Made by a program: the position numbers and the translations under genes. A stretch of 64,000 nucleotides of DNA from an uncultured Pseudohongiella sp. (GTDB lineage: Bacteria; Pseudomonadota; Gammaproteobacteria; Pseudomonadales; Pseudohongiellaceae), in the NCBI GenBank assembly GCA_963974875.1, contig CAXBER010000005.1, positions 120,928 to 184,927 of the forward strand, written 5' to 3'. The notes beneath the pieces are model-generated. The model searched no databases. It saw only the letters and a program-made list of their open reading frames with translations, and was not told the origin of the DNA. Positions within the stretch are counted from its first letter, which is position 1. Every line of letters starts with the position of its first letter. Below, in pieces: positions 703 through 58,960 of this stretch.

Positions 703-3700
703 ATGCTTATCAATCGCCATGGCTCACTGCGCCCGCGTTTTACCCGTAATACCAGCGCGCTGTGCGTCGCCGTTTCAATGTCAATGTTTGCTCTTTCATC
801 CACCACCCATGCCCAAAACAACACGCCCGAAGTGGAAGAGGTGCTTGTCACCGGTTCCTTTATCCGTCGCAGCGAAGGCCTGAACGCCGCATCGCCGGTT
901 ACTCAGCTGAGCGCCGAGGATCTGGAAGCGCAGGGCACCGTCAATATGGCCCAGGTCGTGCAGAATTTAACATTCAACAATGGCACTGCCGTTACCAACT
1001 CCATCCAGGGGGTCACCAGTACTACCTCCAGCTTCAATTTGCGCGGTCTTGGCTCAAGAGCCACGCTCACCCTGATTGACGGTAAACGAATTGCAACCGA
1101 TAACGTTCAGTCCATGCTGCCGGCATCGGCGCTGCAGCGCATCGAAGTGGTAACTGATGGCGCGGCTGCGCTTTATGGCACTGACGCGGTGGCCGGTGTG
1201 GTTAACCTGATTCCCTACAGCTCCTATGACGGCTTTAAGGCCGAGTATTTTGAAGAGGGTGACAGCCGGGGTGATTACCGCAAGGTGGAAACCTCTTTTC
1301 TGGGAGGCAAAAGTTTCGGCAGTGTGGATCTGGTGGTTGCCGGTTCCTACGTGGATGCCTCAGCGCTGGAATGGGCGGAACGTCCTGACTACGTCAAGTC
1401 TGGTCTGACCCACAACGGTGGCTCAAATCCCGGCAATTTTCTGGTGCCGAACCGCGATGCCAATGGTGATTTGACCGGCACGTCCGGCAGCCGCGTCGAT
1501 CCCAGCTGTGGATTTAAAACCGAACCTGATCAGGTGAGCAATGGCAATAACGCCTGGGGCAATCCGCTGGGCGGCCGCTGCTTTATGAGTTTTGGCGATA
1601 CCCGGGACTTTCAGCCGGAGTTTGATACGTCATCGCTGTACGGCAATCTGAACTGGGACGTCAATTCAGATATCACTTTCCGATCACAGGTTATCTGGAA
1701 CCGCCAGGTTACCCGTAACCGTAACAACACCGGTAACCCGGGCGCCCGAACCGCAGATCTTCCCATCGTCCGCGGGGAACTGCCGGGCAACAACTTCCGC
1801 GCAAGAACATCTACAGGCGCAGATCTGTTCGCAGAGCCGGCACGGGACGGCACCGGGGCAATCATACTGGACGGGTACGGCCGGCCACTGCCGCTGCGTA
1901 ATGCCTCAGGTCAGGTGCAGTTTGCCAACAACCGGTTTGCCTCCATAGACAGTGATCCATTGGGCGGTGTGCCGTTCAGTGAAGATGTCAGTATCAATGG
2001 TTCACAGTGGCTGCCTTTCGGCAAGCCCGAGGCAAACACCATCCCGACGGAAATGCAGAAATACGGCCATATTCAGATGAACCATGGTGACCGGCGTGCA
2101 CTGCGCTTTTCAACAGGGCTGGATTTTACCGTGCCGATGCTGGAAGGCTGGCGTGGTACCGCCAACTATGTCTACAGCCACTATGACAATGTGGGCAACA
2201 GCACGCAGCAATTCAGCCTGGGCGCTGTTGCGCAAGGTCTGAACTGCGATGTTGTCAATGACGTCAACAGCTGTTTCAACCCGTTTGGCGCAACTGATGC
2301 GCGGTTCAGAACGCCTCAGCACGTAGCCGACGCGATCTTTACCCAGGATCAGGTGGATGACCGGGATTCTCTGCAGACCTTTGACATTATCTTCAGTGGT
2401 GACGTGCGGCTGGGCAATTTTGAATTACCGGGCGGCGTTATCGCCATGGCGGCCGGTTACCAGCGCCGTGAAGAAACTGACAAGAACGGTCCCAGTGCGA
2501 CTTCCATCCGCAACGACCAGTTGATTGGCGTGCAGGCGCTGCCCACCAGTCAGAGTCGTACCAGTGACTCATGGTTTGCCGAGCTGGCATTTCCAATACT
2601 CGACAATCTGGAGCTGTCTGCTGCAGTACGCGACGAAAGTTTCAGTACCGGCCAGGGTGCAGTGGTCGACAAGTTCGGTCTGGTCTATGTACCCACCGAC
2701 TGGCTGAGCATGCGCGCTACCATGGGTGAGGCATTTATCGTGCCTACGTTGTCTCAGCTGAATTCACCTGAAGTCTGCGGGCTGAGCAACGTGGATGATC
2801 TGTTCTCACCCTTTCAGGGCTTCATTACTTCCTGCCGTACCGGGAACCCGAATCTGTTTTCCGAAGGTTCGGAAAGCCTGTCGTTTGGTGTGGATCTGGC
2901 CTTGCTCGACAACCTGACCTGGTCACTTACCTGGAGCGAAACAGACTTTGTTGACCGTATCGTGAGCACCACAACACAGGACATCATCCGTTCAGACTAC
3001 CGCAACTTCAGAGAAGCATCGGGTTTTAATCCGACAGACGCCAATCCCTATCCGACGCTGGCGCAACTGCAGTCCTGGATGAACGATCCGCGTTCAGACA
3101 AGCGTATTATTCGCAACGCGGCTGACATCACTACACCCGACAGAATCCTGCAGAGTGACTCAAATGCGTCGTCCATGCTGGTGCGTGCCTGGGATACCCA
3201 GATTGACTATGACTTCAGTCTGGATGATCTGAGCCTGAATGGCTGGGGTGATATCAGCATGCAGTTGCAGGCAACCTATGTGGATACCTACAGTTTCCAG
3301 ATGGCAGCAGATCTGCCAGTCATGGAAGCGGTCGGCAGGCAGAACAATGACTTTGGCGCGGTGCCGACCATTCCGCAGATCCGTGCCAACCTGCGCATCA
3401 ACTGGTCACTGGGTAACCACACGGTCAGCACGACGACACGGTTTATCGATGAGGTGTCGTTTGATGCCAACGAGTTCAGCTTCCAGCAGTTCTTCCCGGG
3501 CGCTGAATGGGGTGGTCCAACGGAGTCTCTGCGCGCCTGGACCCAGCTGGACATGTTCTACTCCTACCGGGGACTGGAGCTGTTCGGCAGCGATGTCAAT
3601 CTGTCAGTGGGCGCTCGCAACCTGACCGACCGTATGCCGCAGAAAACCGGCATGATTGCCGGTGTGGCGGCTGAATCCCAGGATGTTCTGGGACGGGTGG

Positions 3701-3729
3701 TCTACGGCCGGGTGAACTTCAACTTCTGA
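703..3729 (+). CDS. TonB-dependent outer-membrane receptor
   Basis: 1008 aa with signal peptide, TonB box-like EEVLVTGS, plug motifs (NLRGLG, RIEVVTDGAAALYGTDAVAGVVN) and C-terminal GRVNFNF. Confidence 0.95.
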   Translation: MLINRHGSLRPRFTRNTSALCVAVSMSMFALSSTTHAQNNTPEVEEVLVTGSFIRRSEGLNAASPVTQLSAEDLEAQGTVNMAQVVQNLTFNNGTAVTNSIQGVTSTTSSFNLRGLGSRATLTLIDGKRIATDNVQSMLPASALQRIEVVTDGAAALYGTDAVAGVVNLIPYSSYDGFKAEYFEEGDSRGDYRKVETSFLGGKSFGSVDLVVAGSYVDASALEWAERPDYVKSGLTHNGGSNPGNFLVPNRDANGDLTGTSGSRVDPSCGFKTEPDQVSNGNNAWGNPLGGRCFMSFGDTRDFQPEFDTSSLYGNLNWDVNSDITFRSQVIWNRQVTRNRNNTGNPGARTADLPIVRGELPGNNFRARTSTGADLFAEPARDGTGAIILDGYGRPLPLRNASGQVQFANNRFASIDSDPLGGVPFSEDVSINGSQWLPFGKPEANTIPTEMQKYGHIQMNHGDRRALRFSTGLDFTVPMLEGWRGTANYVYSHYDNVGNSTQQFSLGAVAQGLNCDVVNDVNSCFNPFGATDARFRTPQHVADAIFTQDQVDDRDSLQTFDIIFSGDVRLGNFELPGGVIAMAAGYQRREETDKNGPSATSIRNDQLIGVQALPTSQSRTSDSWFAELAFPILDNLELSAAVRDESFSTGQGAVVDKFGLVYVPTDWLSMRATMGEAFIVPTLSQLNSPEVCGLSNVDDLFSPFQGFITSCRTGNPNLFSEGSESLSFGVDLALLDNLTWSLTWSETDFVDRIVSTTTQDIIRSDYRNFREASGFNPTDANPYPTLAQLQSWMNDPRSDKRIIRNAADITTPDRILQSDSNASSMLVRAWDTQIDYDFSLDDLSLNGWGDISMQLQATYVDTYSFQMAADLPVMEAVGRQNNDFGAVPTIPQIRANLRINWSLGNHTVSTTTRFIDEVSFDANEFSFQQFFPGAEWGGPTESLRAWTQLDMFYSYRGLELFGSDVNLSVGARNLTDRMPQKTGMIAGVAAESQDVLGRVVYGRVNFNF

Positions 3730-3750: not shown

Positions 3751-3797
3751 AACCGGAAACCCTGCCCGACAGCAATGTCGAGCGGGGTTTTCCGGTT
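3751..3797. terminator. Probable bidirectional intrinsic terminator between convergent genes
   Basis: Long inverted repeat AACCGGAAACCC...GGGGTTTTCCGGTT. Confidence 0.75.
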
Positions 3798-5049
3798 ATT
3801 CAAGGCCCTGCGCCAGCGCAGCCGCCCCATCGGTGGCTATCTGCCGGGCCTGCTCAAGCAATCGTGCGGCTGCCTCGGGAGCATGCACGCCACGTGAGGC
3901 ATCGGCATCAACAAAATCCCAGCGAAACTGCGCCTGGCGATGCGCCCGCTGCGCTGCCGCAAGGGCCGGGTGATCAGGGTTGTCAGTCTGCGCCGTGGAC
4001 AACGCATCCATCAGAGTGCTCAGCGCTGATTCGGTCTGGGCAAGTAACGTATCGGTATTCTGCTGGATACGCTGAGTGCGTTGTGTCATTCGTGCAGCGT
4101 CACCGCGATGACAACCCATGCAGGCCTGCTGCACTTGCTGCAGTGGGCTGCGGATCCAGTGATCGGTGATTTCGCTACCCTGGAACTGCACGCGGGGCAT
4201 GTGACAGTCTGCACAGCTGACACCCACGGCGGCATGTGGTCCCTGACTGTGCAATTCATAGTTGGGGTGTTGCACCTTGATCAGTCCGGCACCCGTCCCG
4301 GGGTGGGTCCAGTCACTGAATCCCAGATCCGCATAAAAACGTTCGATGCTGTCCGGTTCCAGACCGTTTGCCCACGGAAAAACCAGTTCATTTCCATCGC
4401 CGCGAAAATAATATTCGACGTGGCACTGTGCGCAAACGTAGTCACGCATTTTTTCGGGTGGCGCAGCATCAGGATCGATGCCCTGCGACTGCAATGCATT
4501 GCGCAGTGCGGGACGGGTGATGGTCAATGCCATGGTGCCAGGCTGATGGCAGTCGGCGCAACTGCTGCCATGATGCACGCGTGCCGCAATATCCTGATAG
4601 GACATGGCATTCAGATTGTCCCAGCCCAGTTCTGCGACCAGCGCAGGGGCTTCGGCAGCATGACAGTGAATACAGCCGGCCGGCTGCTCGCGCTCCAGTG
4701 TACGGCGGCTGTTGCGCTGATCCGCTTGCGCATAGTAGTGCGCTCGTGCAGCGTTATACTCCAGTTCAAAGGCCATGCCTGCCCAGGCGCGGGCGCGGAA
4801 CGGATTTTCGGCCAGGCGATCATGCTGCGGGCTGGTATCGGCGCCGTTACCCTGCAAAAAACCGCCCTGAAAATAAGAGGCAACATGCAGCGGATACAGT
4901 GTTTGCCATAACGCCGGATCGGTCGCACTGCTCAACTGCTCGCCGCGCTGCAGTTGCTGCCAGCCGAACCCCAGCGCGAGTAGCATCACCACTGGCAGGC
5001 TGGCCAGTGCCAGCAGTTTTGCCCATCGTTCACGCATAGCTGACCTCAC
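3796..5049 (-). CDS. nrfA: NrfA-like pentaheme cytochrome c552 (ammonia-forming nitrite reductase family), heme-1 CXXCH variant
   Basis: Five heme motifs CIHCH, CADCH, CAQCH, CADCH, CMGCH; CAQCHVEYYF; KVQH between hemes 3 and 4; WAGMAFELEYNAARAHYY; QFRWDFV; N-terminal membrane anchor. Alternative start is ATG 5037. Confidence 0.85.
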   Translation of the reverse strand: MRSAMRERWAKLLALASLPVVMLLALGFGWQQLQRGEQLSSATDPALWQTLYPLHVASYFQGGFLQGNGADTSPQHDRLAENPFRARAWAGMAFELEYNAARAHYYAQADQRNSRRTLEREQPAGCIHCHAAEAPALVAELGWDNLNAMSYQDIAARVHHGSSCADCHQPGTMALTITRPALRNALQSQGIDPDAAPPEKMRDYVCAQCHVEYYFRGDGNELVFPWANGLEPDSIERFYADLGFSDWTHPGTGAGLIKVQHPNYELHSQGPHAAVGVSCADCHMPRVQFQGSEITDHWIRSPLQQVQQACMGCHRGDAARMTQRTQRIQQNTDTLLAQTESALSTLMDALSTAQTDNPDHPALAAAQRAHRQAQFRWDFVDADASRGVHAPEAAARLLEQARQIATDGAAALAQGLE

Positions 5050-6365: not shown

Positions 6366-6455
6366 CTGTGTCCCCCGCGGGTCAGTGTTGTACCCGTCAA
6401 TTGATTACATGAGCTTATCGACAATATGAACTTTATGTGTCAAATAAGCGAATTT

Positions 6456-6512
6456 TTGTCAAGCAAGATTCATAAATATCAAGAAAATCTGTCACACAAG
6501 TCTCTCTATAAT
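6456..6512 (+). promoter_or_regulatory. Putative PhoB-type promoter for the TBDR-phosphatase genes
   Basis: Heptamers in an 11-bp register (TTGTCAA 6456, GATTCAT 6467, CTGTCAC 6489; the 6478 position is poor), with a perfect TATAAT at 6507-6512, 11 bp after the last heptamer. Confidence 0.55.
6469..6482 (-). promoter_or_regulatory. FNR/DNR-like box upstream of the reductase-nrfA operon
   Basis: Minus strand reads TTGAT-ATTT-ATGAA, a 9/10 match to TTGAT-N4-ATCAA. Confidence 0.45.
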
Positions 6513-6629
6513 GCGCTCGCACTAAACTGTTAGAGCCGGCGCCCTTTTTGGGTGCGCGGGCATTTCTCCTAACCAAAAAACACTGACCATAAAGTGTCAG
6601 GTTTACGTCATATTACCTGGAGTTACAAG

Positions 6630-9600
6630 ATGAAGTTCAGAAAAAACCTGTTGAGTCAGGCAATTATAGTTGCGCTGTTTACGGTGCCGGCTATGGAGCT
6701 GGTGGCACAGACGCCCGGATCAGCTAATTTTGCTATCGCACAGGCAGGTGCAACCGGTATGGTCGCGGTGACCGGAGAAATCAGCGGTGTGGTAACAGAT
6801 GCCGTGCGAGGCGTTTATCTGGTTGGCGCAGAGGTGCGCATCAGTGGCATTGAAGTTGTAGCCGTAACGGACAGCGAAGGACGTTTCACACTGCGTTCGG
6901 TGCCAGTCGGCAACTACACGCTGGACGTCAGTTATCTGGGCCGCCCGTCGCGCCAGGCCACAGTAACAGTGACCGGCAATCAGGTGGCGACAGTAGACGT
7001 GGTGCTTGGTGCAACAGGTGAAAATGACCAGGTAATAGAGAGTATGGTAGTGATCGGCGCGCGCCCGCAGGCTGAATCCGAAGCCAGGGCACTGCAGATG
7101 CAGCGCTCTTCCGCTGCCATCATCAGTGTGGTGTCGGCAGACGCCGTGGGTCAGTTCCCGGACCAGAACATTGCTGCGGCGCTCTCACGTCTGCCGGGTA
7201 TCGCGGTTCAGCGCGACCAGGGGCAGGAGCGTTCAGTCAGTCTGCGCGGCGCGCCATCGCGCTGGAGCACGATTTCATTTGACGGCGTCAACGTGATTGC
7301 GCCCAGTGGTAAATCCGCGCGTACCGACACAGTGCCTGCGGCCATTGGCAGCGCTGTTGCTGTGCGCAAGGCAGTGACGCCAGCCATGCAAGGTGAGTCG
7401 CTGGCAGGCAATGTTGATATCATCACCCGGGGCGCGTTTGATTATCGGGGCTTCAAGTCTGCCTTGAACGTTGGTGCCGGTTACAACGAACTCGGCGGCA
7501 CGGATCAGAATGAGATTGGCGGCTTTGTTGCCAATACATTCGCCGATGGGCGTTTTGGTGTGCTGGTGTCGGCATCGCGATACGAGCGCGACATGATCAC
7601 CGACAACTTTGAGACTGACTGGGAAACCGGAGAGGATTCCCAGGACCGTGAACCCGGTTTCGAAGATCGCGCCTGGGCGGATGCACACCAGAACAAACTT
7701 TACCGCCTGACTCGCAGCAATACTGCGTACTCCGGCCGGTTTGACTTCCGTCCATCTGACGAACATCATTTTTTCTTCAGCTCCATCTACACCGAATTCA
7801 CCGATGATGAGTTGCGCAATGCTCACGAATTCGATTTTGATGACGGCGCAACGCGTACCGACCGTGCTGATGTGACACGCGGCTATGCCGATGTCCGTAC
7901 CGGCAACACCCCGTTGCAGGGTACAATCTACGGTGTGGAACTGGACAGCTCCCTGAATTCCAACAGGACACTGGAAAGCATTTTCACCAATACGCTTGGC
8001 GGTGAACAGCGATTCGGTGACTGGGATGCCTCCTGGCGGCTCAACTACAGTAATTCCCGTTCCGAGAGCGGACCGTCTATCCAGTCGGCCTGGAGAAGCC
8101 CTCGCGGAGCAGATGCGTTCAGCCATCGTCCGACTGTGGTCTATGATTACACCGACCGGGCAAGACACGGCGTCAGGCTTTACGAAACCATCGTAAATGC
8201 CGATGGGTCGCTCTCGCAAGGTGCCGTGAAGCGCTCTCTTGATCCACAGGATTACGAGTTTGTCCGACTGCGGAACAATGAACGGTTACAGGACAGTGAG
8301 TCCTCCAGCGTGCGTCTGGACCTGAGTCGTGATCTGACACTGTTCGGCCGACCGACTGATTTCCAGTTTGGTTTCCAGTACGACGACAGATCAAAGAAGG
8401 ACACCCGCCAGAGGCAGGAAATTTCTTCGGGCGCACTTGCCGATGCCGGCGTCGCTTTCCCGACTACCGATGATTTTGCCATCAATGATCCGTACCAGGG
8501 CGCACTACCGCTGGGTTATACCTTCCGCTACTTCTCGGACAGTGGTCTGCGGAGCCTGTGGAGCAGTCTTGCCGGACAGGGTCTGGCCGAAATCGACGCT
8601 AACGACTCACGGACCAATAATTACGAGGTCACCGAAACCGTGCTGGCCGGCTATGCGATGGCAACCACCTATTATGACTGGGGTAACATCCTGACGGGTG
8701 CACGTGTTGAACGCGTAGAAAACACCGGCAGCGCTCTGGTCCGGTTCGGAAATAATTTCGAGCCTGCCAAGGTTGGCGGCGACAGCGTTGAGATATTCCC
8801 CAGTGTGCACGTGAACTGGGACATCAACGACGAGCTCAAACTGCGCCTTTCAGCCAACAGCGGTGCGGCGCGGCCTGATTTCACCGTCCTGCGGCCGAAC
8901 TACACCGTCTCTGACGAGAACGAAACAATCAGCGGCGGCAATCCGCTGGCTGGTCCGGAGAAGGCTGTCGGCGGTGATGCCTACCTCGAATGGTACATGC
9001 CATCTGGCGCCTTCTTCTCTGTTGGTGCGTATTACAAGGCGCTGGATGATGTGCTCTTCACTGTCACCCGGCCGCGCTTCGGCAGCGATGTCTTGAACCA
9101 GACCGGGGTTGACCGGTCCGGGTACGAGTACACGACTATCGATAATGGTGGCAGTGGTCATATCGCCGGGTTTGAACTTGCAGTGTCACAGACGCTCGAG
9201 CCGTTCGCAGACCGTATGAACCTGCCAGACTGGGTGAGCGGTTTCGGCTTCCGCGGCAACCTGACGCTCAACGATTCGGAGAGCGAAACGCCTGACGGTC
9301 GCAAGATCCAGTTGCCCGGTTCGTCCGACACCATCTACAACCTGGCGCTGTCCTATGAGCGCTATGATCTGTCGACTCGGCTCAGCTGGCAGTACCGCAC
9401 CAAGTGGATCGACAGCATCGGCAATGGCGACATTCTGGGTGACGGCTACTGGGATGAAGTCGGTCGTCTGGATTTCAAGGTAGGGTATTCGTTTAATGAG
9501 AACGTTAATGTCTATCTGGAAGCGAACAACCTGCTGGAAGAGCCGGGTATCCGTTATGAAGGTGAGACGTACCGGGTCTCTGAGTACGAGGAGTTCGGGC

Positions 9601-9635
9601 GCCGCTACATGATCGGCCTGCGCATGAACTTCTGA
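6630..9635 (+). CDS. TonB-dependent receptor with N-terminal carboxypeptidase-regulatory-like domain
   Basis: ORF 6594..9635 with likely ATG at 6630 (MKFRKNLLSQA); VGQFPDQNIAAALSRLPGI plug motif; C-terminal GLRMNF. Confidence 0.95.
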   Translation: MKFRKNLLSQAIIVALFTVPAMELVAQTPGSANFAIAQAGATGMVAVTGEISGVVTDAVRGVYLVGAEVRISGIEVVAVTDSEGRFTLRSVPVGNYTLDVSYLGRPSRQATVTVTGNQVATVDVVLGATGENDQVIESMVVIGARPQAESEARALQMQRSSAAIISVVSADAVGQFPDQNIAAALSRLPGIAVQRDQGQERSVSLRGAPSRWSTISFDGVNVIAPSGKSARTDTVPAAIGSAVAVRKAVTPAMQGESLAGNVDIITRGAFDYRGFKSALNVGAGYNELGGTDQNEIGGFVANTFADGRFGVLVSASRYERDMITDNFETDWETGEDSQDREPGFEDRAWADAHQNKLYRLTRSNTAYSGRFDFRPSDEHHFFFSSIYTEFTDDELRNAHEFDFDDGATRTDRADVTRGYADVRTGNTPLQGTIYGVELDSSLNSNRTLESIFTNTLGGEQRFGDWDASWRLNYSNSRSESGPSIQSAWRSPRGADAFSHRPTVVYDYTDRARHGVRLYETIVNADGSLSQGAVKRSLDPQDYEFVRLRNNERLQDSESSSVRLDLSRDLTLFGRPTDFQFGFQYDDRSKKDTRQRQEISSGALADAGVAFPTTDDFAINDPYQGALPLGYTFRYFSDSGLRSLWSSLAGQGLAEIDANDSRTNNYEVTETVLAGYAMATTYYDWGNILTGARVERVENTGSALVRFGNNFEPAKVGGDSVEIFPSVHVNWDINDELKLRLSANSGAARPDFTVLRPNYTVSDENETISGGNPLAGPEKAVGGDAYLEWYMPSGAFFSVGAYYKALDDVLFTVTRPRFGSDVLNQTGVDRSGYEYTTIDNGGSGHIAGFELAVSQTLEPFADRMNLPDWVSGFGFRGNLTLNDSESETPDGRKIQLPGSSDTIYNLALSYERYDLSTRLSWQYRTKWIDSIGNGDILGDGYWDEVGRLDFKVGYSFNENVNVYLEANNLLEEPGIRYEGETYRVSEYEEFGRRYMIGLRMNF

Positions 9636-47952: not shown

Positions 47953-48460
47953 CCCACTTTCACTAAATGATTGCCGCCAAAGGTAAGGATCGCTTTCGAA
48001 GTTAAGCTTTAGTGTTTCCACAGTGAGAGGGAGCGCATAAAAGGTGGTCACCAACGAACGACCGTCCCATTTTCCACGGGTCAGTCGGGCTCGGTGATGC
48101 AGATAGCCCTAGCGATCAAGTATAAGGAAAGTACTCTGGCTCTGTTTTATGCCGGATGTGTAAATCTGGGTGCGGCGGCACCGGTGCATGCTTGGCGGGA
48201 TGACTGCAAGTGAAAGCAGCGGTCAGCGTAATTTAGTAATTGAGTGGGTGAGCATTGAAGTGACGCCATTTGTAGCGAAAATATATTCCTCACGGCGGTG
48301 ACTGTGGGTGGAGGCTGCTTTGCATAGAGTATGGGAAATAGCTCACGGAAGCGACTACGTTCTACTTGAAGTGTGCGGGAAGCTTGGGCTGGTCCAGACA
48401 TTTTACTAAAGTGTCCGAAATTTCCAGGGCAGAGTCCATAACAATAAAACAGGATAAAAC

Positions 48461-50747
48461 ATGTCAATTTTTAAAGCAGAAGCTAAATCGTTGCTAAAAT
48501 TGTTTACAGGTGAGGCAAACCGTATCGGCTTTAAAATCCCGGAATATCAAAGGAAATATGACTGGGGTGAAAACAATATCATTAGATTATTCGAAGATAC
48601 TCTGTCTGGATTGAAATCATTGGAGCGGGATCCAGATTCCATCACATTCTTAGGTTCAATAATTCTTATCCAAAATCAAGATCTAAGAGAGCCGAGCTTT
48701 GACGGAGAATCTTTAGAAATAGTGGATGGTCAGCAGCGAATAACTTCATGCGCTATAGTAGCGGTGCATCTTCACGAAGCGATAGACACGGAACTGTCTA
48801 GTCTTCCCGAGATAGGCACTGATCTTAGAGAGTGGTTAACAAGAGAAGCGAAAAGAACGAAGCAATTGCTGCTGCAGTGCGTATTTGGGAATTTATTGGT
48901 GGATGGTATAGATAATTTCCCATTTCCTAGAATTGTAAGAACGAATGATAATAGAGCTGCGTCAGATGGTGAGTTGGAATATCGGTCATTAACTGCTAAG
49001 TATTTTTTTGGGTATGCTCAACATATTAGAAAAAGGACTAGTCGCCTATACGAGAAACCCGAAGCAGACAAAAATGATCAATCGACAGTCAGATTCTTGG
49101 AGAATGTCAAATTTATAGAAAAATGCATAAGGGTTCTCAGTAAGAGCTCCGAAGAAGTTGACTTTGGAGTAGAGCTTCTAGAAACGAATACTTTCAAGGT
49201 GACAAATATAAGAAAGCTCTTTCAGGCTCCATCGGAACGACAAGACATCACTAATAGACACTTCGAAATGATATGTGGCAAGTACCGATGTGAAACAGAA
49301 GCTCTGGTGAGGCTTGTCATTTTTGCAAACTATTTCCTGGAAAATGTAATTCTAACCGTTGTAACTACTCGGGCAGAGAAATACGCTTTTGATATCTTTG
49401 ACTCCCTTAATACGACAGGCGAGCCATTGACTGCGATCGAAACATTTAAGCCTAAGGTAATTCGATTCGAAAACGGCCAGCAAGGAAAGTACAAGGGATC
49501 CGAAAGTGAGTCCCATTTTGCCGTGGTAGAGAAATATATCGATCAATTTAGTAAAAATAGTGACAAACAAGAAGAGTCGCGTGACCTAATTCTTCCCTTT
49601 GCGCTGCTAACGACTGGTGACAGATGTTCTCGCCATTTGGTAAACCAGCGACGATATCTGAGAGCAGAGTATGATTCAATACCTGTTGAAAATAAGGTTA
49701 ATAAACGGAAATTCATTAAAAATCTCGCAGACATTGCGAGGTTTAAAAGCGAGTTTTGGAATCGAGATAACTTGCTTCAAAGGCTGCCAGTACTCTCGGA
49801 CAGAGAGTCTGTAATATTGTGCCTTGCATTCCTAATAGACCTTAAAAACACTCTTGCAATACCCATACTCACGCGAGTATGGGTTCATTCAGAAGAGATG
49901 GGCGATTTTAAGTTTTTTGCGGACTGTGTCAAAGCACTAACAGCTTTTGTAGTACTTAGAAGAAGCGCTACGGGAGGGACTGCAGGGATCGATAATGATC
50001 TAAGAGGTGTGATGGAAAAAGGGGGGGGTAGATGGAAGCGACCGAGGAATGAAAACTGGGACGAGGTTTGACCGTCCGATGACTTCCGTGACTGACTTCA
50101 AGGAGATGCTGAAAGTTCGTCTAGCAAGACGACCTGCGGAAATTAACGGCAAAGAATCTTGGCTTGACCAGGCCAAAAAGCAACCTTTGTATTTAAGCTC
50201 GCGACCTCTTTGTCGGTTCATTATTCTCGCCGCAAGTCACAATTCTCGCCCATCCCAGGCAGAACCCATACTTTTATTGAAAGATAGACCCAGCCCTGAA
50301 CTGGAGTATCTTTCTTATAGAAAGTGGTTTGAAGACGATTTACTAACAATTGAGCATATAGCACCCGAAAGCGACCGGGAGCGGAAGTGGCCGCTGCCAA
50401 TTTATGATCTACCCTATCTAAGGCACACAATCGGAAATTTGACGTTACTTTCACAGGAGCAGAACTCTGCAATAGCCAATTATGAATGGGGACGGAAGAA
50501 GCTTTTCTATAAAGCATTTTCTGTAGATACGATACGGGAAGTTGAAGCAGCTATCCATGAAGCTTCTGGTCACGGGGTTTCCTTTAGTAACAGGACCAAA
50601 GTGATGCTGAGGGGAATGCGGCAATTGCCAGTGGCAAAAGGGATATCCTTGGCCAGTACGTGGTCTGTCGCGGAGATTGAAGCTAGAACTGAAAATTTGC
50701 TTAGCATCTGTTGGGATGAGATTTCCCCTTGGCTTTTTGATAGCTAA
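48461..50747 (+). pseudogene. sspE: SspE-like DUF262-DUF1524 effector split by a +1 frameshift in a G8 tract (ORFs 48461..50071 and 50049..50747)
   Basis: IPEYQRKYDW, DGQQR and FDSLNTTG in ORF1; EHIAP and GNLTLL in ORF2. Removing one G from 50021-50028 gives a single 761-aa frame. Confidence 0.8.
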
Positions 50748-51067
50748 AGTTTTCTCTGTTTAATAATGCCAGCAACACGATTTGTATCGTAGGTCTTTGG
50801 CCGTAGTTGGAATGGCTCAAAATTAACTCAGGGTCATCGATCAGGATAAGTTATTCGAGAACGGATAATGTGTCCTGAAAGAGCGATTCCGCGGGCCTGA
50901 CGTCTTGAGGGTTGGTTGTATTGAGTATATTGAAAGTATTGTGGTGTGCCTAATTTAAATTGATGGTGAGGTTGCGAGTTGAAGTTACGGCTTTTCGAGC
51001 TGCTTTCGTTTTAATAGGCGGTACACTGGCAGGTTGGCAACAAAGGTATACCTTATAGGCCGGCGTG

Positions 51068-51096
51068 ATGTAACATTATCTCATGTTATGTTACAT
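51068..51096 (+). promoter_or_regulatory. Inverted-repeat operator in front of the ssp operon
   Basis: ATGTAACAT-N11-ATGTTACAT. Confidence 0.7.
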
Positions 51097-51109
51097 AGAG
51101 GGTAAAGTG

Positions 51110-51310
51110 ATGGCAGTGGGCTCAAGCGGTCGAATTGTGATAGAGATTGATCCGGCTACGAAAAAAGAGCTATATCATATGCTTAGAGAGGAAAACTCCA
51201 ATTTAAAAGAGTGGTTTCTACGGCATGTAGAGGATTACCTGGCAGGTAAAGAGCAGTTTCAGTTAGATCTTGGGGCTCCGGTTCGTAACAAAGGCAGACA
51301 TTTTATATGA
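51110..51310 (+). CDS. Small ribbon-helix-helix-like regulator leading the ssp operon
   Basis: RIVIEID...KKELY..L...NLKEWF pattern; ATGA overlap with sspB. Confidence 0.6.
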   Translation: MAVGSSGRIVIEIDPATKKELYHMLREENSNLKEWFLRHVEDYLAGKEQFQLDLGAPVRNKGRHFI

Positions 51311-52227
51311 GATTCAACCCCGAAAAAATGGCCTTCGGGCGGCACGAGACTTTCGCTCTACGCTATGGCTGGCTCTCCAAGGGTTTTCAGGCGCTAGAAG
51401 AAGACGACGGCATCTTCGAGTCAGACGACGCAACTGTAAAGTTGGGCGTGGGTAAAAACATGGTAAATGCCATCAAGTATTGGTTGCGCGCTTGTCAGAT
51501 GATGCACCCTACTCAGAATGCCCCTACTCAGCTTGGAAAAGAGTTGTTGTCTGGTACTGGGTTCGATCCCTACCTAGAAGATGAAGCTACGATATGGTTA
51601 TTGCATTGGCTTTTGGCTACGAATGCTGAACTAGCGACCTCATGGTATTGGTTCTTTAATCGCTTTCATAAGCCAGAGTTTACTGGTCAAGAGTTGAACA
51701 CGGCCCTCAATGACTTCGTTTCGGACAAAGTCATTAATAGAAAAAAACCTGCCCCTGCGACTTTAGCGAACGACGCGAATTTGCTTCCACGCATGTACAC
51801 CCAATCAAAGGGAAATACTCGAACGCCTCTGGAGGACGCACTAGACTCACCATTTTCTTTGTTAAAGCTAGTGACTCAGAGTGCGAGTGGCAGGAGTTTT
51901 CAATCGCGGCCTATGGCGAGACCCGATTTGCCGCTCGGGGTCTTGGGCTTTGCTGTATGCCAAACGTTTGAGATTAAAAACACCAAGGCAATTCCTATAG
52001 AAGATTTTATGTACAGCAAAGATAATTATCCTGCGATAGGTTCGGTATTCCGACTGACAGAAAGCGACTTAGTAACAAAACTCGAAAAACTAATTAACTA
52101 TATCCCAGGTAAATTCGATATCAGAGATACTGCAGGACAGCATCAGCTTTACTCCTCAGAGGTGACTGATGGAATGATCTACATTGCTGAACACTACAAC
52201 CACCCCGCCCAAGGTGTCGCAGCATGA
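51307..52227 (+). CDS. sspB: SspB (DUF4007) phosphorothioation protein
   Basis: FGRHETFALRYGWLSKG, LGVGKNMVNAIKYW, FDPYLED..TIWLLHWLL. Confidence 0.88.
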   Translation: MRFNPEKMAFGRHETFALRYGWLSKGFQALEEDDGIFESDDATVKLGVGKNMVNAIKYWLRACQMMHPTQNAPTQLGKELLSGTGFDPYLEDEATIWLLHWLLATNAELATSWYWFFNRFHKPEFTGQELNTALNDFVSDKVINRKKPAPATLANDANLLPRMYTQSKGNTRTPLEDALDSPFSLLKLVTQSASGRSFQSRPMARPDLPLGVLGFAVCQTFEIKNTKAIPIEDFMYSKDNYPAIGSVFRLTESDLVTKLEKLINYIPGKFDIRDTAGQHQLYSSEVTDGMIYIAEHYNHPAQGVAA

Positions 52228-55200
52228 CCATAGCAAGGCAAGTCCAAATAAATACACATTACACTCGTTCTATTAATTTGGAGCGCGATGCCAATTCCAT
52301 CGACGTTGTCAAAGCATATATACCTACTTCTAGGTCTCTGAAACTATTCGGTCGTATAGCTGACGGATTTCATGGTGAGCGTGCTCCGCGAGCTTGGTCG
52401 CTAATCGGACCGTATGGATCTGGTAAGTCTTCGGCATCTGTATTTCTTTCCCAATTGTTATCGTCCCCAGACTCTCCCGCAACTAAAGTAGCGACGAAAG
52501 CGCTAAAGGCGGCAGCGCCCGAGATCGCATCGCAATTCCGAAAAGAGACTAGTGGAACCGATGGTTATTTGAAAGTACTAGTGACGGGTTCGCCAGAGCC
52601 GATGGGCAAGAAAATAATTAGAGGGTTGTCGGCATCGGTGGTTCAGTATTTCACAAAATTCAAAGGCTCTAACCCCAAAGTAGTTTCGCGCATTGAGGAA
52701 CTTGTCGAATTAGAGATAGTATCTACTTCGGTTGTGCTCGAGATTATGCTGGAATTGCAAGCAGCTCTTGCAAAAAAGAAATGCAAGGGTATCTACATCG
52801 TTATTGATGAACTAGGCAAATTTCTGGAGTTTGAAGCACGTCACTATGGTGCCAACGATATCTATTTGCTTCAAACTTTGGCAGAGCATGCCTGTAAAGG
52901 TGATGAGTGTAATCTCTTTCTTTTTGTGTTGCTGCATCAGTCCTTTGAGCAGTACGCCAAAGGATTAGGTGAGAGCCTTAAGAACGAATGGGCTAAAGTC
53001 CAAGGACGCTTTGAAGATGTGCCGTTTCTTGAGTCGGTAGAACAAGTTCTGAGGGTGGTGAGTGCTGCCTTCAGCTATGATTTTAAACCGAAAGAGCAAG
53101 CGTTGCTTAAGAAGAGAATGGCTGGCTTTGTTGAAGTATTGGGTTCGAACGGCGCTCTACCCGGCGTCGCAGATAGAAGCGCTATGGTTGATCTCATGTG
53201 CCACTGCTATCCGTTTCATCCAGTTAGTGCTGTGTTATTGCCCACGCTCTGCCAGAAAGTAGCGCAGAATGAGCGGACATTATTCAGTTATCTTGGGAGC
53301 CACGAAGAATTTGGACTCCAAGATATGATTGAACGGTTTAGTTCGCTCGATGATTTTATCTACCCGCATCATGTTTACGATTATTTCATTACGAACCAGC
53401 CCGCGGCTTTAGGTGATTATCGTACTCATAGGCGTTGGGCGGAAGTAGTTACCGCGATAGAGAGGTTGGGCGACGCCCCAGAAGATCAGCTCAACCTTCT
53501 TAAAACGATTGGCCTAATGAATATTATCGGGATAAAGGGAGGTTTCAAACCTTCGAAGGCACTGTTAGGGATCTGTGCGCCCGGAAAAGCAGGGGTAAGT
53601 AGTTCCTTAAAGGCGCTGCAAGATAAGTCAATAGTCACCTATCGGCGTTTTAGCGGAGAGTACAGGGTTTGGCAAGGTAGCGATTTTGATCTTGAAGAGG
53701 CGCTAGAAGAAGAACTAAACAATCTTGGTGAGTTCTCTCTGGCCGAAGAGCTTAATAGTGCTAACGCTTTGATGCCAATCGTAGCTCGAAGGTATACGAT
53801 TAAAAGCGGCGCTCTACGCTACTTTGTCCCCGAGTTTGTAGATGCCCAGACTTATATAAAGTCTTCTGGAAAAACAAGCGAGCCGCGCATAATATTTTTC
53901 CTGGCGACCGCCCAGGATGATGAGGCTCTTTTTAGGAAGTTAGTTGTTCAGCACTATTCAGAGCTCGATCTGGTAGCGCTATGCCTTAACGGAACCCAGT
54001 TAAGAGAAGCTACCGCAGAGGTGTTGGCGTTACGACAAGTGCAAAACAAGAGGCAAGAGTTAAACACTGATCCGGTGGCTAAAAGAGAGTTTGAAGATCG
54101 CCTAACTGCAGCAGAGAACGCGGAGCGGCAGCTTCTTCAGCGACTGCAAGAGCAACCGCAAGAGTGCAATTGGTACCATAGTTCCAAAGAGTATAGCGTA
54201 GACGCAAAGCGCGAATTCCAAGAACTATTGTCCTCAGTTCTAGAAAATGTGTATAGCAAATCGCCTCAGCTGCACAATGAGCTCTTAAACAGAGATCGAC
54301 CATCCGCTCAAGCGAACGCGGCACGCAATAGACTTTTAGAAGCGATGATGTTGAATCCGCTGGATAAGGACGACCTTGGGATAGAAAAATTCCCTCCAGA
54401 GAAGGCTATATATCGATCAATCCTGTTGACTACGGGGCTCCACAATAAGGTTTCGAGGGAATTCCAGGAGCCTGCCAAAGACTCCACAATATTCCACGTA
54501 TGGCGACAGATAAATGAGTTCCTTGACTCTACCGAGAAGGCTCCGAAGAGTTTTGCGCAGCTAAATGAATTGTTGATGGCCCCCCCTTATGGCGTTAAAG
54601 CTGGCATGCTTCCTGTTCTTTACGTGGCCGCATATATCGTCTATCAACATGAGCTTGCTTTATACGAAAACAGGCAATATAAGCCAGTTTTTACCCAGGA
54701 GATGATCGAGAGATTTGTCAAGCGCCCTGATGAGTACACTTTTCAAAGATTCAGGATAACTGGTCTGCGGTCTTCAATTTATAAAGAGTATTGCAAGATT
54801 ATTGATACCGGATCGAAGCAAACTGTAGTTCAGCTAGTGAAGCCCTTAGCTCAATTTATTAGTTCATTGCCTGATTTCACTCAGCGTACAAAGAACTCAG
54901 AAATATCGGACCAAGCTATAAAAGTCAGGAATGCATTTAATTTTGCAAAATCTCCAGAGCACCTGATATTCGAGGAAATACCAAAGGCACTCGGATATGA
55001 GGAAGAGCTCCGTAAGAAGAAACCAAACTTGGAGGGTCTCTCCGCAGCCCTTCAGGATTGCTTGCAACAATTAAAGAAAGCATATCCTCAAATGATCCGG
55101 AATCAAATCCGTATGTTGCTAGGCGCATTTCATATGGATGTTAACGCGGACCTGGAAACCCTTAGAAGAAAGGTAATTGGTCGCTATGAAGGTTTAGAGC

Positions 55201-55703
55201 AGCATACTGTGGATGTAGACGGACTCAAGGCGTTTATAAAGAGGTTGACGAAGAGAGAGGGTGATGACGATAGCTGGCTTGAGAATGTTCTACTTTTCTT
55301 GGGACAGAAGCCTACTACGAAATGGACTGATATGGACTGTACAGAAGTCGATATCAAGCTAAGTGAGTACGCCAAACGAATATTAGACCTTGAGGCTTTG
55401 CGTGTTCACTACGATCGCGTAAAGAGCAATATGGATGGGGACTTTGATGTCATTCTGTTAAAGGCAGTAAAGAAAGGCAGTGAGCCCATCGATGAGGTGG
55501 TGGCGATAGACGCTCGAAAGAAAGAAGCCATTCAACTTTGTAAGGCTGGAATATACGCGGCTATAGAAGGTCATTCGGACTCAGAGTTGCAGCTTGCGGC
55601 TTTAGCCGAAGTCGTCGAAGAGTTTCTGAAGAAACGGAAAAACTCTGTTATGTCTGGTCGTCGCCCCACAAAACAAGTTAGGGAGGTGAAGCGTGGCAAT
55701 TAG
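52224..55703 (+). CDS. sspC: SspC P-loop ATPase
   Basis: SINLERD, GPYGSGKS, IDELGKFLE, YPFHP, QNERTLFSYL; 1159 aa between DUF4007 and PAPS reductase genes. Confidence 0.85.
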   Translation: MTIARQVQINTHYTRSINLERDANSIDVVKAYIPTSRSLKLFGRIADGFHGERAPRAWSLIGPYGSGKSSASVFLSQLLSSPDSPATKVATKALKAAAPEIASQFRKETSGTDGYLKVLVTGSPEPMGKKIIRGLSASVVQYFTKFKGSNPKVVSRIEELVELEIVSTSVVLEIMLELQAALAKKKCKGIYIVIDELGKFLEFEARHYGANDIYLLQTLAEHACKGDECNLFLFVLLHQSFEQYAKGLGESLKNEWAKVQGRFEDVPFLESVEQVLRVVSAAFSYDFKPKEQALLKKRMAGFVEVLGSNGALPGVADRSAMVDLMCHCYPFHPVSAVLLPTLCQKVAQNERTLFSYLGSHEEFGLQDMIERFSSLDDFIYPHHVYDYFITNQPAALGDYRTHRRWAEVVTAIERLGDAPEDQLNLLKTIGLMNIIGIKGGFKPSKALLGICAPGKAGVSSSLKALQDKSIVTYRRFSGEYRVWQGSDFDLEEALEEELNNLGEFSLAEELNSANALMPIVARRYTIKSGALRYFVPEFVDAQTYIKSSGKTSEPRIIFFLATAQDDEALFRKLVVQHYSELDLVALCLNGTQLREATAEVLALRQVQNKRQELNTDPVAKREFEDRLTAAENAERQLLQRLQEQPQECNWYHSSKEYSVDAKREFQELLSSVLENVYSKSPQLHNELLNRDRPSAQANAARNRLLEAMMLNPLDKDDLGIEKFPPEKAIYRSILLTTGLHNKVSREFQEPAKDSTIFHVWRQINEFLDSTEKAPKSFAQLNELLMAPPYGVKAGMLPVLYVAAYIVYQHELALYENRQYKPVFTQEMIERFVKRPDEYTFQRFRITGLRSSIYKEYCKIIDTGSKQTVVQLVKPLAQFISSLPDFTQRTKNSEISDQAIKVRNAFNFAKSPEHLIFEEIPKALGYEEELRKKKPNLEGLSAALQDCLQQLKKAYPQMIRNQIRMLLGAFHMDVNADLETLRRKVIGRYEGLEQHTVDVDGLKAFIKRLTKREGDDDSWLENVLLFLGQKPTTKWTDMDCTEVDIKLSEYAKRILDLEALRVHYDRVKSNMDGDFDVILLKAVKKGSEPIDEVVAIDARKKEAIQLCKAGIYAAIEGHSDSELQLAALAEVVEEFLKKRKNSVMSGRRPTKQVREVKRGN

Positions 55704-56562
55704 AAAAGTATCCATAAAGGACATCGAAGGTTTCGATAGCTGTCGGCATGTCTTGGGCTTGTCAGGTGGCAAGGATAGTGCGGCGCTAGCTGTGTACATT
55801 AAGGATAAGTATCCGGAAGTTCATGAGAAAGTAGAGTATTTCTTTACCGATACTGGTGCCGAACTGAAGGAGGTTTACGATTTTCTGGACAAATTGGAAG
55901 CATACTTAGGAAAAGAAATCGCAAGGCTCAGTAGCGGGAAAGACTTCGATCACTGGCTAAAGGTTCACAATGAATACCTACCATCTGCCAAGCAAAGATG
56001 GTGTACCCGCACGATGAAGATAAAACCTTTCGAAGAGTTCGTGGGTAATGATCCGGTGATTAGCTATATTGGCATCAGAGCGGATGAGAATAGAGAAGGA
56101 TATATAAGCCACAAGGAAACGATAAAAGCGGTATTCCCTTTTGTGGAAGACGGGTTAATTAGAAGCGATATCTTTCAGATTCTAAGTGATTCAGTTGGTG
56201 TGCCTGAGTATTACAAGTGGCGCTCACGCTCGGGATGTTACTTCTGCTTTTTTCAACGACAAGATGAGTGGCTCGGCCTAAAGAGAAATCATCCAGACCT
56301 CTTTGAGAAAGCACGTGAGTATGAAAATAAAATTAGGTCAAAGTTCGACTGGAAGGATGGGGTGATTCCAGTGAATGGTCACGGTTATACTTGGTCGTCA
56401 CAAGGGTCCATTGATGAGCTCGTTCTGCGTGCCGAAGCAAGGGAGAAAGAGCAAGGTATTATTGCAAAGTCATCGACGAAAGCTGAGCGGTGGCAGAAAA
56501 CTATAGAGAATATGATAGATGATGATCCCGAAGACCAGGCTTGTTTGATTTGCAGCCTCTAG
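55693..56562 (+). CDS. sspD: SspD PAPS-reductase-family protein
   Basis: SGGKDS, RWCTR.MKIKPF, YKWRSRSGCYFCFFQ, terminal CLICSL. Confidence 0.88.
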   Translation: MAIRKVSIKDIEGFDSCRHVLGLSGGKDSAALAVYIKDKYPEVHEKVEYFFTDTGAELKEVYDFLDKLEAYLGKEIARLSSGKDFDHWLKVHNEYLPSAKQRWCTRTMKIKPFEEFVGNDPVISYIGIRADENREGYISHKETIKAVFPFVEDGLIRSDIFQILSDSVGVPEYYKWRSRSGCYFCFFQRQDEWLGLKRNHPDLFEKAREYENKIRSKFDWKDGVIPVNGHGYTWSSQGSIDELVLRAEAREKEQGIIAKSSTKAERWQKTIENMIDDDPEDQACLICSL

Positions 56563-56779
56563 GTGTCGCCAAGTTCTCTCTTCGTTGCGAGATTCTCTTG
56601 ATCTCTCTACACATTATGTGTGAGATGAGGCCAGTAATTTCGAAAGGGAAGGTGGCGATTATCTACGTTTTTTCTTCCAGCTACGAATTTCTAGTTGTTA
56701 GATACAGGCTTGCTATTTAACTCAGCTGGGTGGCTTTTTTGCCTATGGAAGGGTTCAACGAGAAAATAGAGGTAAAATT

Positions 56780-58957
56780 GTGACGCTTAGGGAATTGCCG
56801 CTTAAGTCAGTCTACCGCAGTGGTGAAGATAATATTCTGACTGACTTCTATATACCATGCTTGAAATCAAGTGTGCTATACGAAAGAGCAGTTGGCTTTT
56901 TCTCTTCGTCAATTCTAATTTATGCCATGTGCGGTATCTCTGAACTCCTTCGAAATGGGGGTGAAATGCGTCTCATCATTGGCTATCCTCTAGAAGATGA
57001 TGAGTTTGAGATGTTACAGGCAAGTGAGTCGCTTAACCATCTTGGTAGTAAGCTTAGCGCTGATCTCGAGAAAATGATTTTAGGCGCCAATACTGACTTG
57101 CTTAAGTATAGGTTGAAACTCTTTTTCCTGATGACAGTTACAGGCAAGTTGAAAATTAAGTTTGCCTATCGCCGCAACGGCATGTATCACGAAAAAATTG
57201 GGATTTTACATGATGCAAGTGGAAACAAAGTCTTGTTTCAAGGTTCGGCCAATGAGACAACAAACGCTGTAAATCCAGACCTAAACTTTGAATCTATTAG
57301 TATATATCGCAACTGGGTACATGAGATTTACAGTGACTATGCGCAACCCTACGAGAATGGGTTCGCAAGACTGTGGTCTGGCTCTGACCCTCACACTAAA
57401 ACCTTAGATATCCCGAGCGAACTATATACGTTTATTCACAAGCAGATTAATAGGAGTGTCGAGTACTCAAGACTTGATGACCTTATCGAAGACGAGCGAC
57501 TGTTAGGCGAGCGTCAGGTTGTAGCATACGTTAATAGCTACCCAGTGGTGCCGGCGGAGATTGGAGGGAGACCTTTTACGCCCTATCCGCATCAAATTTC
57601 CGCTCTTAGAACCTGGGCCGCTAGTGAGTATCAAGGGATATTCAAACTGGCGACTGGGGCTGGAAAAACGATAACCGCGATGTACGCCGTAGCTAAAGTT
57701 TTCGAGGCAAATAGGGATGAGCGAAGAATTGCCTTAATAGTTGCTGTTCCATATATCGCTCTTGCGGAGCAATGGATCAAAGAGCTAAGGTCATTTAATA
57801 TGAACCCGATCCCATGTTTCGGGGTGCTTGAAACATGGAGGGACCGTCTCAACTCGTCGATAAGCCAGCTTAATTTAGGGGAGCTTGAGTTTTTTAGTGT
57901 TGTTGTTGTTAATCAGACTCTCCATAAAGAGCCATTCCAGTTGAGTATGGCCAGATTATCCCCAGATAATATTTTCTTCGTTGGTGATGAATGCCACCAC
58001 CATGCTACATCTACTCTCGCAAGTGCAATACCTGCCGCCGCATTCAAGATTGGGCTCTCTGCTACTCCATACTCCGACGAGCTTGATGCCGGGTACGAAA
58101 CCGATCCCGTTAGAATAGGCGCTCTTACAAGTGCATACGGCGGGATAGTTGCTGAATACGGGTTAGCAAATGCGCTCGGTGATGGTGTTCTTACGCCTTA
58201 CAACTACTATATTGAACACGTCTATCTTACAGATGTTGAGATGGACGAGTACCAGGAACTCAGTAAAGAAATAGCAACATGGTTGTCTTCAAATGAAAGC
58301 GAGTTGAGCAATAAGGTAAAAGACCTAATCCGGCGCCGAAATCGTATTATTAACAATGCGTCTCAAAAAATACCTGCGCTTCAGAGGCTTCTGGAAGCAG
58401 AGAATATTGATGACAAAAAGCACACCCTAGTGTACGTCGGGGAGGGGAGGGTACTAGAGCAGGAGGGAAATGTTAGCTTAGAAAAAGACCTAAATCAGCT
58501 TAGTGCCGTGGCTAACTGTATGATGAATCTCGGCTGGAAAGTTTCTAGATTTACCGCGCAAGAAAATAAATCTGACAGATTGGCTATTATAAGCGATTTT
58601 AAGGAAGGTAATATTGAAGCTCTAGTATCAATGCGAGTGCTAGATGAGGGCATCGATATACCCGCGTGCGAGAGAGCCTTCATTCTAGCAAGTACAACAA
58701 ACTCTCGGCAGTTCATACAAAGGCGGGGCAGGATATTGCGAAAATCTCCTGGGAAAGAAGTGGCGAACATTTATGATTTCATAGTAATCCCTAGCGTGAC
58801 AGGTAACTCAGCGCCAGCACCTTGCTTCGTAAGTTTAGTCCGAAGAGAGCTTTACCGATTAATGGAGTTTGTGAAATTGTCAAAGAATAGAAAAGAAGGA
58901 GAGAGCTGGGCGGCAAATCTCGCGAGCCAATTTGATCTGGACATAAAGGAGTTCTAA
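56780..58957 (+). CDS. PLD-like/SF2 helicase of PT-associated restriction modules (SspFGH/PbeA-like)
   Basis: YHEKIG...QGSANET; ATGAGKT; DECHH; LSATP; RVLDEGIDIP; QRRGRILR. Confidence 0.8.
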   Translation: MTLRELPLKSVYRSGEDNILTDFYIPCLKSSVLYERAVGFFSSSILIYAMCGISELLRNGGEMRLIIGYPLEDDEFEMLQASESLNHLGSKLSADLEKMILGANTDLLKYRLKLFFLMTVTGKLKIKFAYRRNGMYHEKIGILHDASGNKVLFQGSANETTNAVNPDLNFESISIYRNWVHEIYSDYAQPYENGFARLWSGSDPHTKTLDIPSELYTFIHKQINRSVEYSRLDDLIEDERLLGERQVVAYVNSYPVVPAEIGGRPFTPYPHQISALRTWAASEYQGIFKLATGAGKTITAMYAVAKVFEANRDERRIALIVAVPYIALAEQWIKELRSFNMNPIPCFGVLETWRDRLNSSISQLNLGELEFFSVVVVNQTLHKEPFQLSMARLSPDNIFFVGDECHHHATSTLASAIPAAAFKIGLSATPYSDELDAGYETDPVRIGALTSAYGGIVAEYGLANALGDGVLTPYNYYIEHVYLTDVEMDEYQELSKEIATWLSSNESELSNKVKDLIRRRNRIINNASQKIPALQRLLEAENIDDKKHTLVYVGEGRVLEQEGNVSLEKDLNQLSAVANCMMNLGWKVSRFTAQENKSDRLAIISDFKEGNIEALVSMRVLDEGIDIPACERAFILASTTNSRQFIQRRGRILRKSPGKEVANIYDFIVIPSVTGNSAPAPCFVSLVRRELYRLMEFVKLSKNRKEGESWAANLASQFDLDIKEF

Positions 58958-58960
58958 AAG

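Follow-up and report, generated by a model that had tools for sequence, protein, structure and literature searches.

Within the window, the 64,000-nt stretch of DNA from an uncultured Pseudohongiella sp. analyzed here, an nrfA-like gene of the pentaheme cytochrome c552 family lies directly downstream of a gene for a flavocytochrome b of the NADPH oxidase (NOX)/ferric-reductase type. The nrfA-like product falls in the NrfA clade whose heme 1 motif is CXXCH, and the subclade around it appears, judging from gene pairs and sequences, to have lost the quinol dehydrogenase NrfH and to carry the NOX-type flavocytochrome b in its stead. We consider it probable that the pair serves a non-respiratory reduction of nitrite, nitric oxide (NO) or hydroxylamine driven by NAD(P)H. 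That the two genes constitute a fourth, quinone-independent route for powering NrfA, namely a membrane-spanning NAD(P)H:nitrite/NO/hydroxylamine oxidoreductase with direct transfer to a membrane-anchored, His-ligated enzyme, is a proposal to which we give an even chance. What is new is a subclade of NrfA in which the electron donor appears to have been exchanged; the exchange of Lys for His in the heme 1 motif was already known and is of little weight by itself.

The open reading frame (ORF) was assigned to its family by profile matching and by alignment to solved enzymes. Pfam Cytochrom_C552 (PF02335) matches residues 45–415 with an expect value (E) of 2.8e-108 and 363 bits (cut-off 24.1). 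Five CXXCH motifs are present, CIHCH at residues 126–130, CADCH at 164–168, CAQCH at 206–210, CADCH at 279–283 and CMGCH at 310–314, and these motifs, starting at 126, 164, 206, 279 and 310, align in order with hemes 1–5 of 1gu6 and 3ubr. Alignments to solved NrfAs were made with HMMER, and chain indices of 1gu6 were converted to precursor numbers by adding 26. In the alignments to the E. coli and S. oneidensis structures, CIHCH is placed on CWSCK and H130 corresponds to E. coli K126, in agreement with the initial annotation, which had read the gene as an NrfA-like enzyme with CXXCH at heme 1. The Tyr in CHVEYY, the His of KxQH and the Arg in RNSRRT, which that annotation had listed as retained, align to E. 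coli Y216, H264 and R106 and can be accepted as such. R116, C126, C129, H130, E212, Y213, K258, Q260 and H261 are invariant in an alignment with 58 CXXCH-clade relatives, and none of the 40 members of the NOX-linked subclade departs from the Arg/Tyr/His triad or from the Ca2+-site residues. By these residues the window NrfA is of the calcium-dependent KxQH type.

Partner genes were examined at 12 places with NrfA identities of at least 49%, comprising the window and loci L002, L004, L006, L007, L008, L011, L012 and L091–L094. A complete NOX-like gene lies directly upstream of nrfA in ten of them (window, L002, L004, L006, L008, L011, L012, L092, L093 and L094), and at L091 the contig ends within it. 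Genes around the pair vary from place to place. At L007 (3910–4758 and 6246–9240) the pair adjoins a catalase gene and an NnrS gene, and at L008 (1652–3432) a second NOX-like paralog of 439 aa adjoins the gene of a BOF-domain protein and is divergent from the NOX-NrfA pair. No tetraheme (NrfH-type) ORF stands beside nrfA in the window. The opposite arrangement, a four-heme NrfH-type gene and no NOX-like gene, was found at 66 His-type and 5 Lys-type loci, all of them outside the subclade and with NrfA identities of 47% or less. A maximum-likelihood tree was built from 178 NrfA sequences, including Lys-type representatives from an exhaustive 50%-identity library. On this tree, the NOX-linked NrfAs form a single 40-row subclade (Shimodaira-Hasegawa-like approximate likelihood-ratio test (SH-aLRT) 99; median length 415 aa), the nearest neighbors of the subclade are NrfH-linked (L009, then Thermus scotoductus, L014), and the partner state, NrfH or NOX, requires one change. 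A scan of genome contigs for relatives with a single-protein query returned mostly NrfH-type relatives and only two further species of the subclade.

The loop that follows heme 4 was compared between the NrfH-linked and NOX-linked enzymes. In the other CXXCH NrfAs it carries a Tyr in 83 of 91 sequences, an Arg in 85 of 91 and a Lys in 87 of 91, whereas the Lys is found in 0 of 40 members of the NOX-linked subclade; in the window NrfA, all three residues conserved in NrfH-coupled enzymes are replaced. The loop aligns with KKK329–331 of D. vulgaris NrfA, which we take, from the 2J7A work, to be the stretch holding the Lys that ligates heme 4 of NrfH. Ligation of an NrfH heme by an NrfA Lys is itself documented (PMC8840924). 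The Lys-containing NrfH-docking loop thus seems, by its sequence, to have decayed in the NOX-linked subclade.

The NOX-like protein is matched by PF01794, PF08022 and PF00175 and has six predicted transmembrane helices. Four His residues, H80/H94 and H150/H164, spaced 14 apart in two of the predicted helices, are invariant in 8 orthologs, as are HPFS at 255–258 (flavin adenine dinucleotide (FAD)), GGIGVAP at 317–323 (NAD(P)H), CGP at 408–410 and the C-terminal ELFDMA. Over its full length, its AlphaFold2 (AF2) model is structurally matched best by SpNOX, the NADPH oxidase of Streptococcus pneumoniae (8qt6, E 5.9e-16). Domain order and the resemblance to SpNOX suggest that the protein moves electrons from NAD(P)H to an acceptor outside the cell membrane. 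The NOX-like gene is directly upstream of nrfA, and the coding ends overlap if nrfA starts at GTG or lie 8 nt apart if it starts at ATG; the two genes are proposed to be co-transcribed and translationally coupled. Pairwise distances of the NOX-like proteins and of the NrfAs, calculated for nine pairs, are correlated (r 0.68, Mantel p 2e-4) and the mean divergence of the two is similar, from which it follows that the two genes are inherited as a unit.

The heme 1 motif is encoded by TGT ATT CAC TGT CAT, and with CAT as the last codon at least two base substitutions would be required to turn His into Lys. In a search among 5.8 billion proteins, 120 of the 120 nearest homologs had CXXCH at heme 1. 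A sequencing error or a chance motif was ruled out on these two grounds, and the early reading of the motif as CIHCH, not a misread Lys, is upheld. The fifth residue of the motif is His in every one of 131 CXXCH-type rows and Lys in every one of 47 K-type rows. The Lys/His state requires only two changes on the tree of 178 sequences, and the NrfA phylogeny that had been suggested as a check puts the window protein inside the CXXCH clade, nested among 130 rows (SH-aLRT 94). The CXXCH NrfAs have been published as a monophyletic clade, in which about 90% of the nrfA reads from soil are placed (Saghai et al., 2023; PMC10716430). Reviews follow the His variant to its first appearance in the genome of Campylobacter jejuni and in 3 of the 18 clades that Welsh et al. 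(2014) distinguished (PMC8840924). The initial annotation was right to call His-type variants known, but with so large a clade the His type is no curiosity. Searches with profiles and heme motifs were extended to the whole host genome, which is 99% complete. A CXXCK-specific heme lyase (NrfEFG or NrfI), noted as absent from the window in the initial annotation, is also lacking genome-wide, where a single CcmF/NrfE-family gene was found on another contig than the window. Because every heme motif of the protein is CXXCH, the standard Ccm system would be enough and a CXXCK lyase is not needed. H130 is presumably the proximal ligand of heme 1.

The AF2 model of the window NrfA (predicted local distance difference test (pLDDT) 92.7, predicted template-modeling score (pTM) 0.90) was compared with known structures. 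It fits E. coli NrfA 2rdz with a template-modeling (TM) score of 0.84 and a root-mean-square deviation of 2.1 Å (Foldseek), and fits other multiheme enzymes far more poorly (OcwA, TM 0.42; MccA, TM 0.26). The ORF is 417 aa when counted from GTG at 5049. Translation more likely starts at ATG 5037, giving 413 aa, since the GTG overlaps the upstream stop (GTGA) and the ATG is preceded at 6 nt by a GAGG and is the start used in the public protein cluster. The protein ends about 60 residues short of the E. coli NrfA C terminus, with all core elements kept. The median number of residues before heme 1 is 118 in the subclade, 144 in other CXXCH NrfAs and 132 in Lys types, and the inter-heme loops of the subclade are slightly shorter. 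The small size pointed out in the initial annotation is thus real, but it is no individual oddity, the shorter N-terminal region and loops being common to the whole subclade. At the N terminus, an AF2 helix spans residues 2–39 with pLDDT of at least 90, and the subclade conserves the start MRE.LAKL.AL together with the hydrophobic stretch after it, in which an A-x-A site is lacking. From sequence and model, this helix is probably an uncleaved signal anchor that would hold the enzyme on the periplasmic face of the membrane. The ORF thus encodes an intact pentaheme enzyme of the NrfA family that is probably membrane-anchored and periplasmic.

Genome-wide, no member of the NrfH/NapC/CymA family (PF03264) was found, and no ORF besides the window NrfA has four or more heme c motifs. 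The Pfam Molybdopterin enzyme (PF00384) also had no match in the genome, which therefore has no Nap, Nar or Nas nitrate reductase, no formate dehydrogenase and no reductase of the dimethyl sulfoxide/trimethylamine N-oxide type. NirB gave no match above cut-off in the genome, and its one siroheme protein scores as NirA/sulfite-reductase-like, below all cut-offs. With two A-type (aa3-type) oxidases and one cbb3 oxidase, the host respires oxygen. Among 201 genomes of the same order, 4 had any NrfA-family match, the other three matches being not closely like the window NrfA, and none was found in 2 congeners and 2 members of the same family. Outside the window, contig C9:149974-155940 (L112, L113) carries a cluster encoding an NnrS-like membrane protein, NorR and a NirK-like two-domain copper protein, together with two small c-type cytochromes and a second two-domain multicopper oxidase. 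NorR scores 689 bits, above its cut-off; the NirK-like protein scores 167 bits, below the cut-off of 296, and has the HxxDFH and YHC...H...M copper-ligand patterns. The cluster possibly constitutes a nitrite/NO module that responds to NO; the genome has neither nitrate reductase nor Nor.

In the proposed mechanism, electrons from cytoplasmic NAD(P)H would pass to FAD, cross the membrane through two stacked b hemes of the NOX-like protein and enter the heme chain of NrfA, ending at heme 1. Heme 1 would be the site at which nitrite, and probably also NO and hydroxylamine, is converted to ammonium. With outward electron flow and proton consumption on the outer side, such a route would dissipate the membrane potential and not build it, so that by established bioenergetics no energy would be conserved. 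In an aerobe unable to reduce nitrate, the role of the pair would then be detoxification, nitrogen scavenging or redox balancing and not respiration.

An ordinary respiratory NrfA, ammonifying nitrate or nitrite with quinol electrons brought by an unrecognized carrier and with the NOX-like gene as a mere neighbor (used, for example, in ferric or flavin reduction), would suit an active site that is fully canonical save for the change from Lys to His, the report that CXXCH NrfAs such as that of C. jejuni ammonify nitrite (PMC12285233) and a respiratory chain whose cbb3 oxidase is appropriate to low oxygen. We judge it decidedly unlikely. The genome offers neither NrfH/NapC/CymA nor another cytochrome of at least four hemes to act as NrfB, and neither a nitrate reductase nor a formate dehydrogenase; the pairing is seen in 12 of 12 examined places amid unrelated neighbors, with genes that overlap or lie 8 nt apart; and the NrfH-docking Lys is gone from the whole subclade. 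Also unlikely is the same wire from NAD(P)H to the periplasm feeding an acceptor other than a nitrogen oxide (H2O2, sulfite, or a metal or other extracellular acceptor), with an enzyme that is NrfA-like in fold only. The invariance of the Arg/Tyr/His triad of nitrite chemistry and of the Ca2+-site residues throughout the subclade speaks against such an acceptor, as does the model, which fits nitrite reductases far better than OcwA or MccA. On the other side stand the turnover of sulfite and other small molecules by NrfAs (PMC8840924), the carrier locus at which the pair is found beside catalase and NnrS, the inability of the host to make nitrite from nitrate and a score well under the NrfA equivalog cut-offs.

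Several observations weigh against NAD(P)H-driven, non-respiratory reduction of nitrite, NO or hydroxylamine by the NOX-NrfA pair. The protein scores far under the cut-offs of the NCBIfam NrfA equivalogs NF008339 and TIGR03152 (264 versus 595 bits and 219.7 versus 692.5 bits). Gene adjacency does not establish electron transfer from protein to protein. The NOX-like gene of L007 ends at residue 315, immediately ahead of the motif that binds NAD(P)H. In L011 (4001–5225; 79% identity; an uncultured gammaproteobacterial metagenome-assembled genome), the locus of the closest relative, the reading frame of nrfA shifts near residue 337. The module can thus be dispensed with, or is in decay in some carriers. 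The public protein of L011, P0004, is shortened to 346 aa, reflecting either a pseudogene or an assembly error. Molybdopterin enzymes are present in 4 of 5 other carrier genomes, so that a lack of nitrate reductase does not characterize carriers in general. The NorR/NnrS/NirK-like cluster on contig C9 may mean that nitrite and NO handling is organized differently than proposed. Lastly, no CXXCH heme 1 occurs among the NrfA structures matched in the PDB, and a 2025 review treats the ligand of heme 1 in CXXCH NrfAs as an open question between the motif His and a remote Lys (PMC12285233). Ligation of heme 1 by something other than His would also fit the markedly lowered activity reported for a Lys-to-His swap in W. 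succinogenes NrfA (PMC8840924). It is nonetheless highly improbable, given that H130 is invariant in all 131 CXXCH-type sequences. K258 (E. coli K261), which belongs to the distal Ca2+ site, is the one Lys that never varies among the 58 sequences of the CXXCH clade, and no other Lys reaches 90% conservation; a remote proximal Lys was for this reason judged unlikely as the ligand.

Coordinates of the features are collected in Table 1. The eight orthologous upstream regions that were compared do not conserve the FNR-like site found ahead of the NOX-like gene. When the upstream regions of nine orthologous operons were scanned for operators of FNR, CRP, Fur and NsrR, this lone site in the window was the only one obtained, and none was conserved. 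A sigma-70 scan of the upstream region gave no promoter, and no sigma-54 promoter was seen there by eye. The pair is flanked by TonB-dependent receptor genes at 703–3729 (+) and 6594–9635 (+), each encoding about 1000 aa. Orthologs of both receptors are present in congeners and lie on different contigs in G058; as the two congeners have no NrfA-family match, the NOX/NrfA pair constitutes an accessory module at a synteny break. Elsewhere in the window, the G+C content of 48001–60000 is 0.43–0.45, compared with 0.55–0.57 over most of the remaining window, and this segment is probably foreign DNA.

Table 1. Features of the NOX-nrfA locus in the window, with positions, strand and supporting evidence.
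Feature	Position	Strand	Evidence or detail
nrfA-like gene (pentaheme cytochrome c552 family)	3796..5049	(-)	ORF call, profile match, structure alignments
Post-heme-4 loop, residues 286-293, counterpart of NrfH-docking loop	4171..4194	(-)	E293 in Lys column
KVQH; K258 and Q260 Ca2+ site, H261 catalytic His	4267..4278	(-)	= E. coli K261, Q263, H264
Heme 3 motif with CAQCHVEYY; E212 Ca2+ ligand, Y213 catalytic Tyr	4408..4434	(-)	= E. coli E215, Y216
Heme 1 motif CIHCH, residues 126-130	4660..4674	(-)	Aligns to CWSCK of 3ubr and 1gu6; H130 replaces proximal Lys
R116 (in RNSRRT), = catalytic Arg106 of E. coli NrfA	4702..4704	(-)	Structure alignment; invariant in relatives
N-terminal hydrophobic helix, ~residues 9-31	4957..5025	(-)	AF2 helix and conserved start
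nrfA/NOX-like gene junction	5035..5049	(-)	TGA stop 5046-5048 overlaps GTG 5047-5049; GAGG 5044-5047; ATG 5035-5037
NOX/ferric-reductase-type flavocytochrome b gene, 439 aa	5046..6365	(-)	Pfam Ferric_reduct, FAD_binding_8 and NAD_binding_1
Upstream intergenic region, divergent from TonB-dependent receptor gene	6366..6593	(-)	Two TTGACA hexamers, one FNR-like site
FNR-like site TTGATATTTATGAA, 1 mismatch	6469-6482	(-)	117 nt upstream of NOX-like start

Nitrate ammonifiers of soils and waters are counted with nrfA as the marker gene, and the little-studied CXXCH clade takes up most environmental nrfA reads. If the NOX-linked pair works as proposed and is carried by aerobes that lack nitrate reductase, part of the environmental nrfA signal would come from aerobes that remove nitrite or NO non-respiratorily and not from nitrate ammonification; NOX-linked nrfA genes would report detoxification or scavenging, and models based on gene counts would over-assign ammonification. 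Bacterial NOX homologs would gain a natural physiological protein acceptor, and a compact two-gene system would be available for testing His versus Lys ligation in NrfA without NrfH or a special lyase.

The window NrfA and the NOX-like protein were compared with known enzymes. With canonical NrfAs (E. coli 1gu6/2rdz, S. oneidensis 3ubr, W. succinogenes 1fs7 and D. vulgaris 2j7a) it shares the fold (TM 0.81–0.84), the heme order, the active-site residues and the Ca2+ site, and it differs from them in having CXXCH instead of CXXCK, no NrfEFG/NrfI lyase, no NrfBCD, NrfH or CymA partner and a probable N-terminal membrane anchor; relative to E. coli NrfA it has the shorter C terminus described above. 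It resembles the CXXCH-clade NrfAs (for example those of Campylobacter jejuni, Anaeromyxobacter and Chloroflexota; PMC10716430) in its five CXXCH motifs, Arg/Tyr/His residues, KxQH and tree position, but its subclade is more compact and has lost the docking-Lys loop. The partners given for NrfA in the 2025 review are NrfH, CymA and NrfB(CD) only, and all published CXXCH NrfAs are said there to use NrfH (PMC12285233), whereas the window genome and locus have no NrfH and a NOX-type partner instead; in a full-text literature search, no description of a NOX-type or ferric-reductase partner for NrfA was found. The NOX-like protein keeps the three-domain build, the four heme His residues, HPFS and GGIGVAP of SpNOX (8qq7, 8qt6; PMC5676040, PMC11564096) at about 18% sequence identity. 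SpNOX has no assigned protein acceptor, whereas the window NOX-like gene has the gene of a co-inherited periplasmic multiheme enzyme directly downstream. By analogy only, the pair can be likened to MsrPQ (with Fre; PMC12525009), in which a b-heme membrane protein with a ferric-reductase domain passes electrons derived from the cytoplasm to a periplasmic reductase of repair or detoxification; MsrQ carries no fused FAD/NAD domain and hands its electrons to a molybdoenzyme, while in the window pair the dehydrogenase is fused and the acceptor would be a pentaheme cytochrome c.

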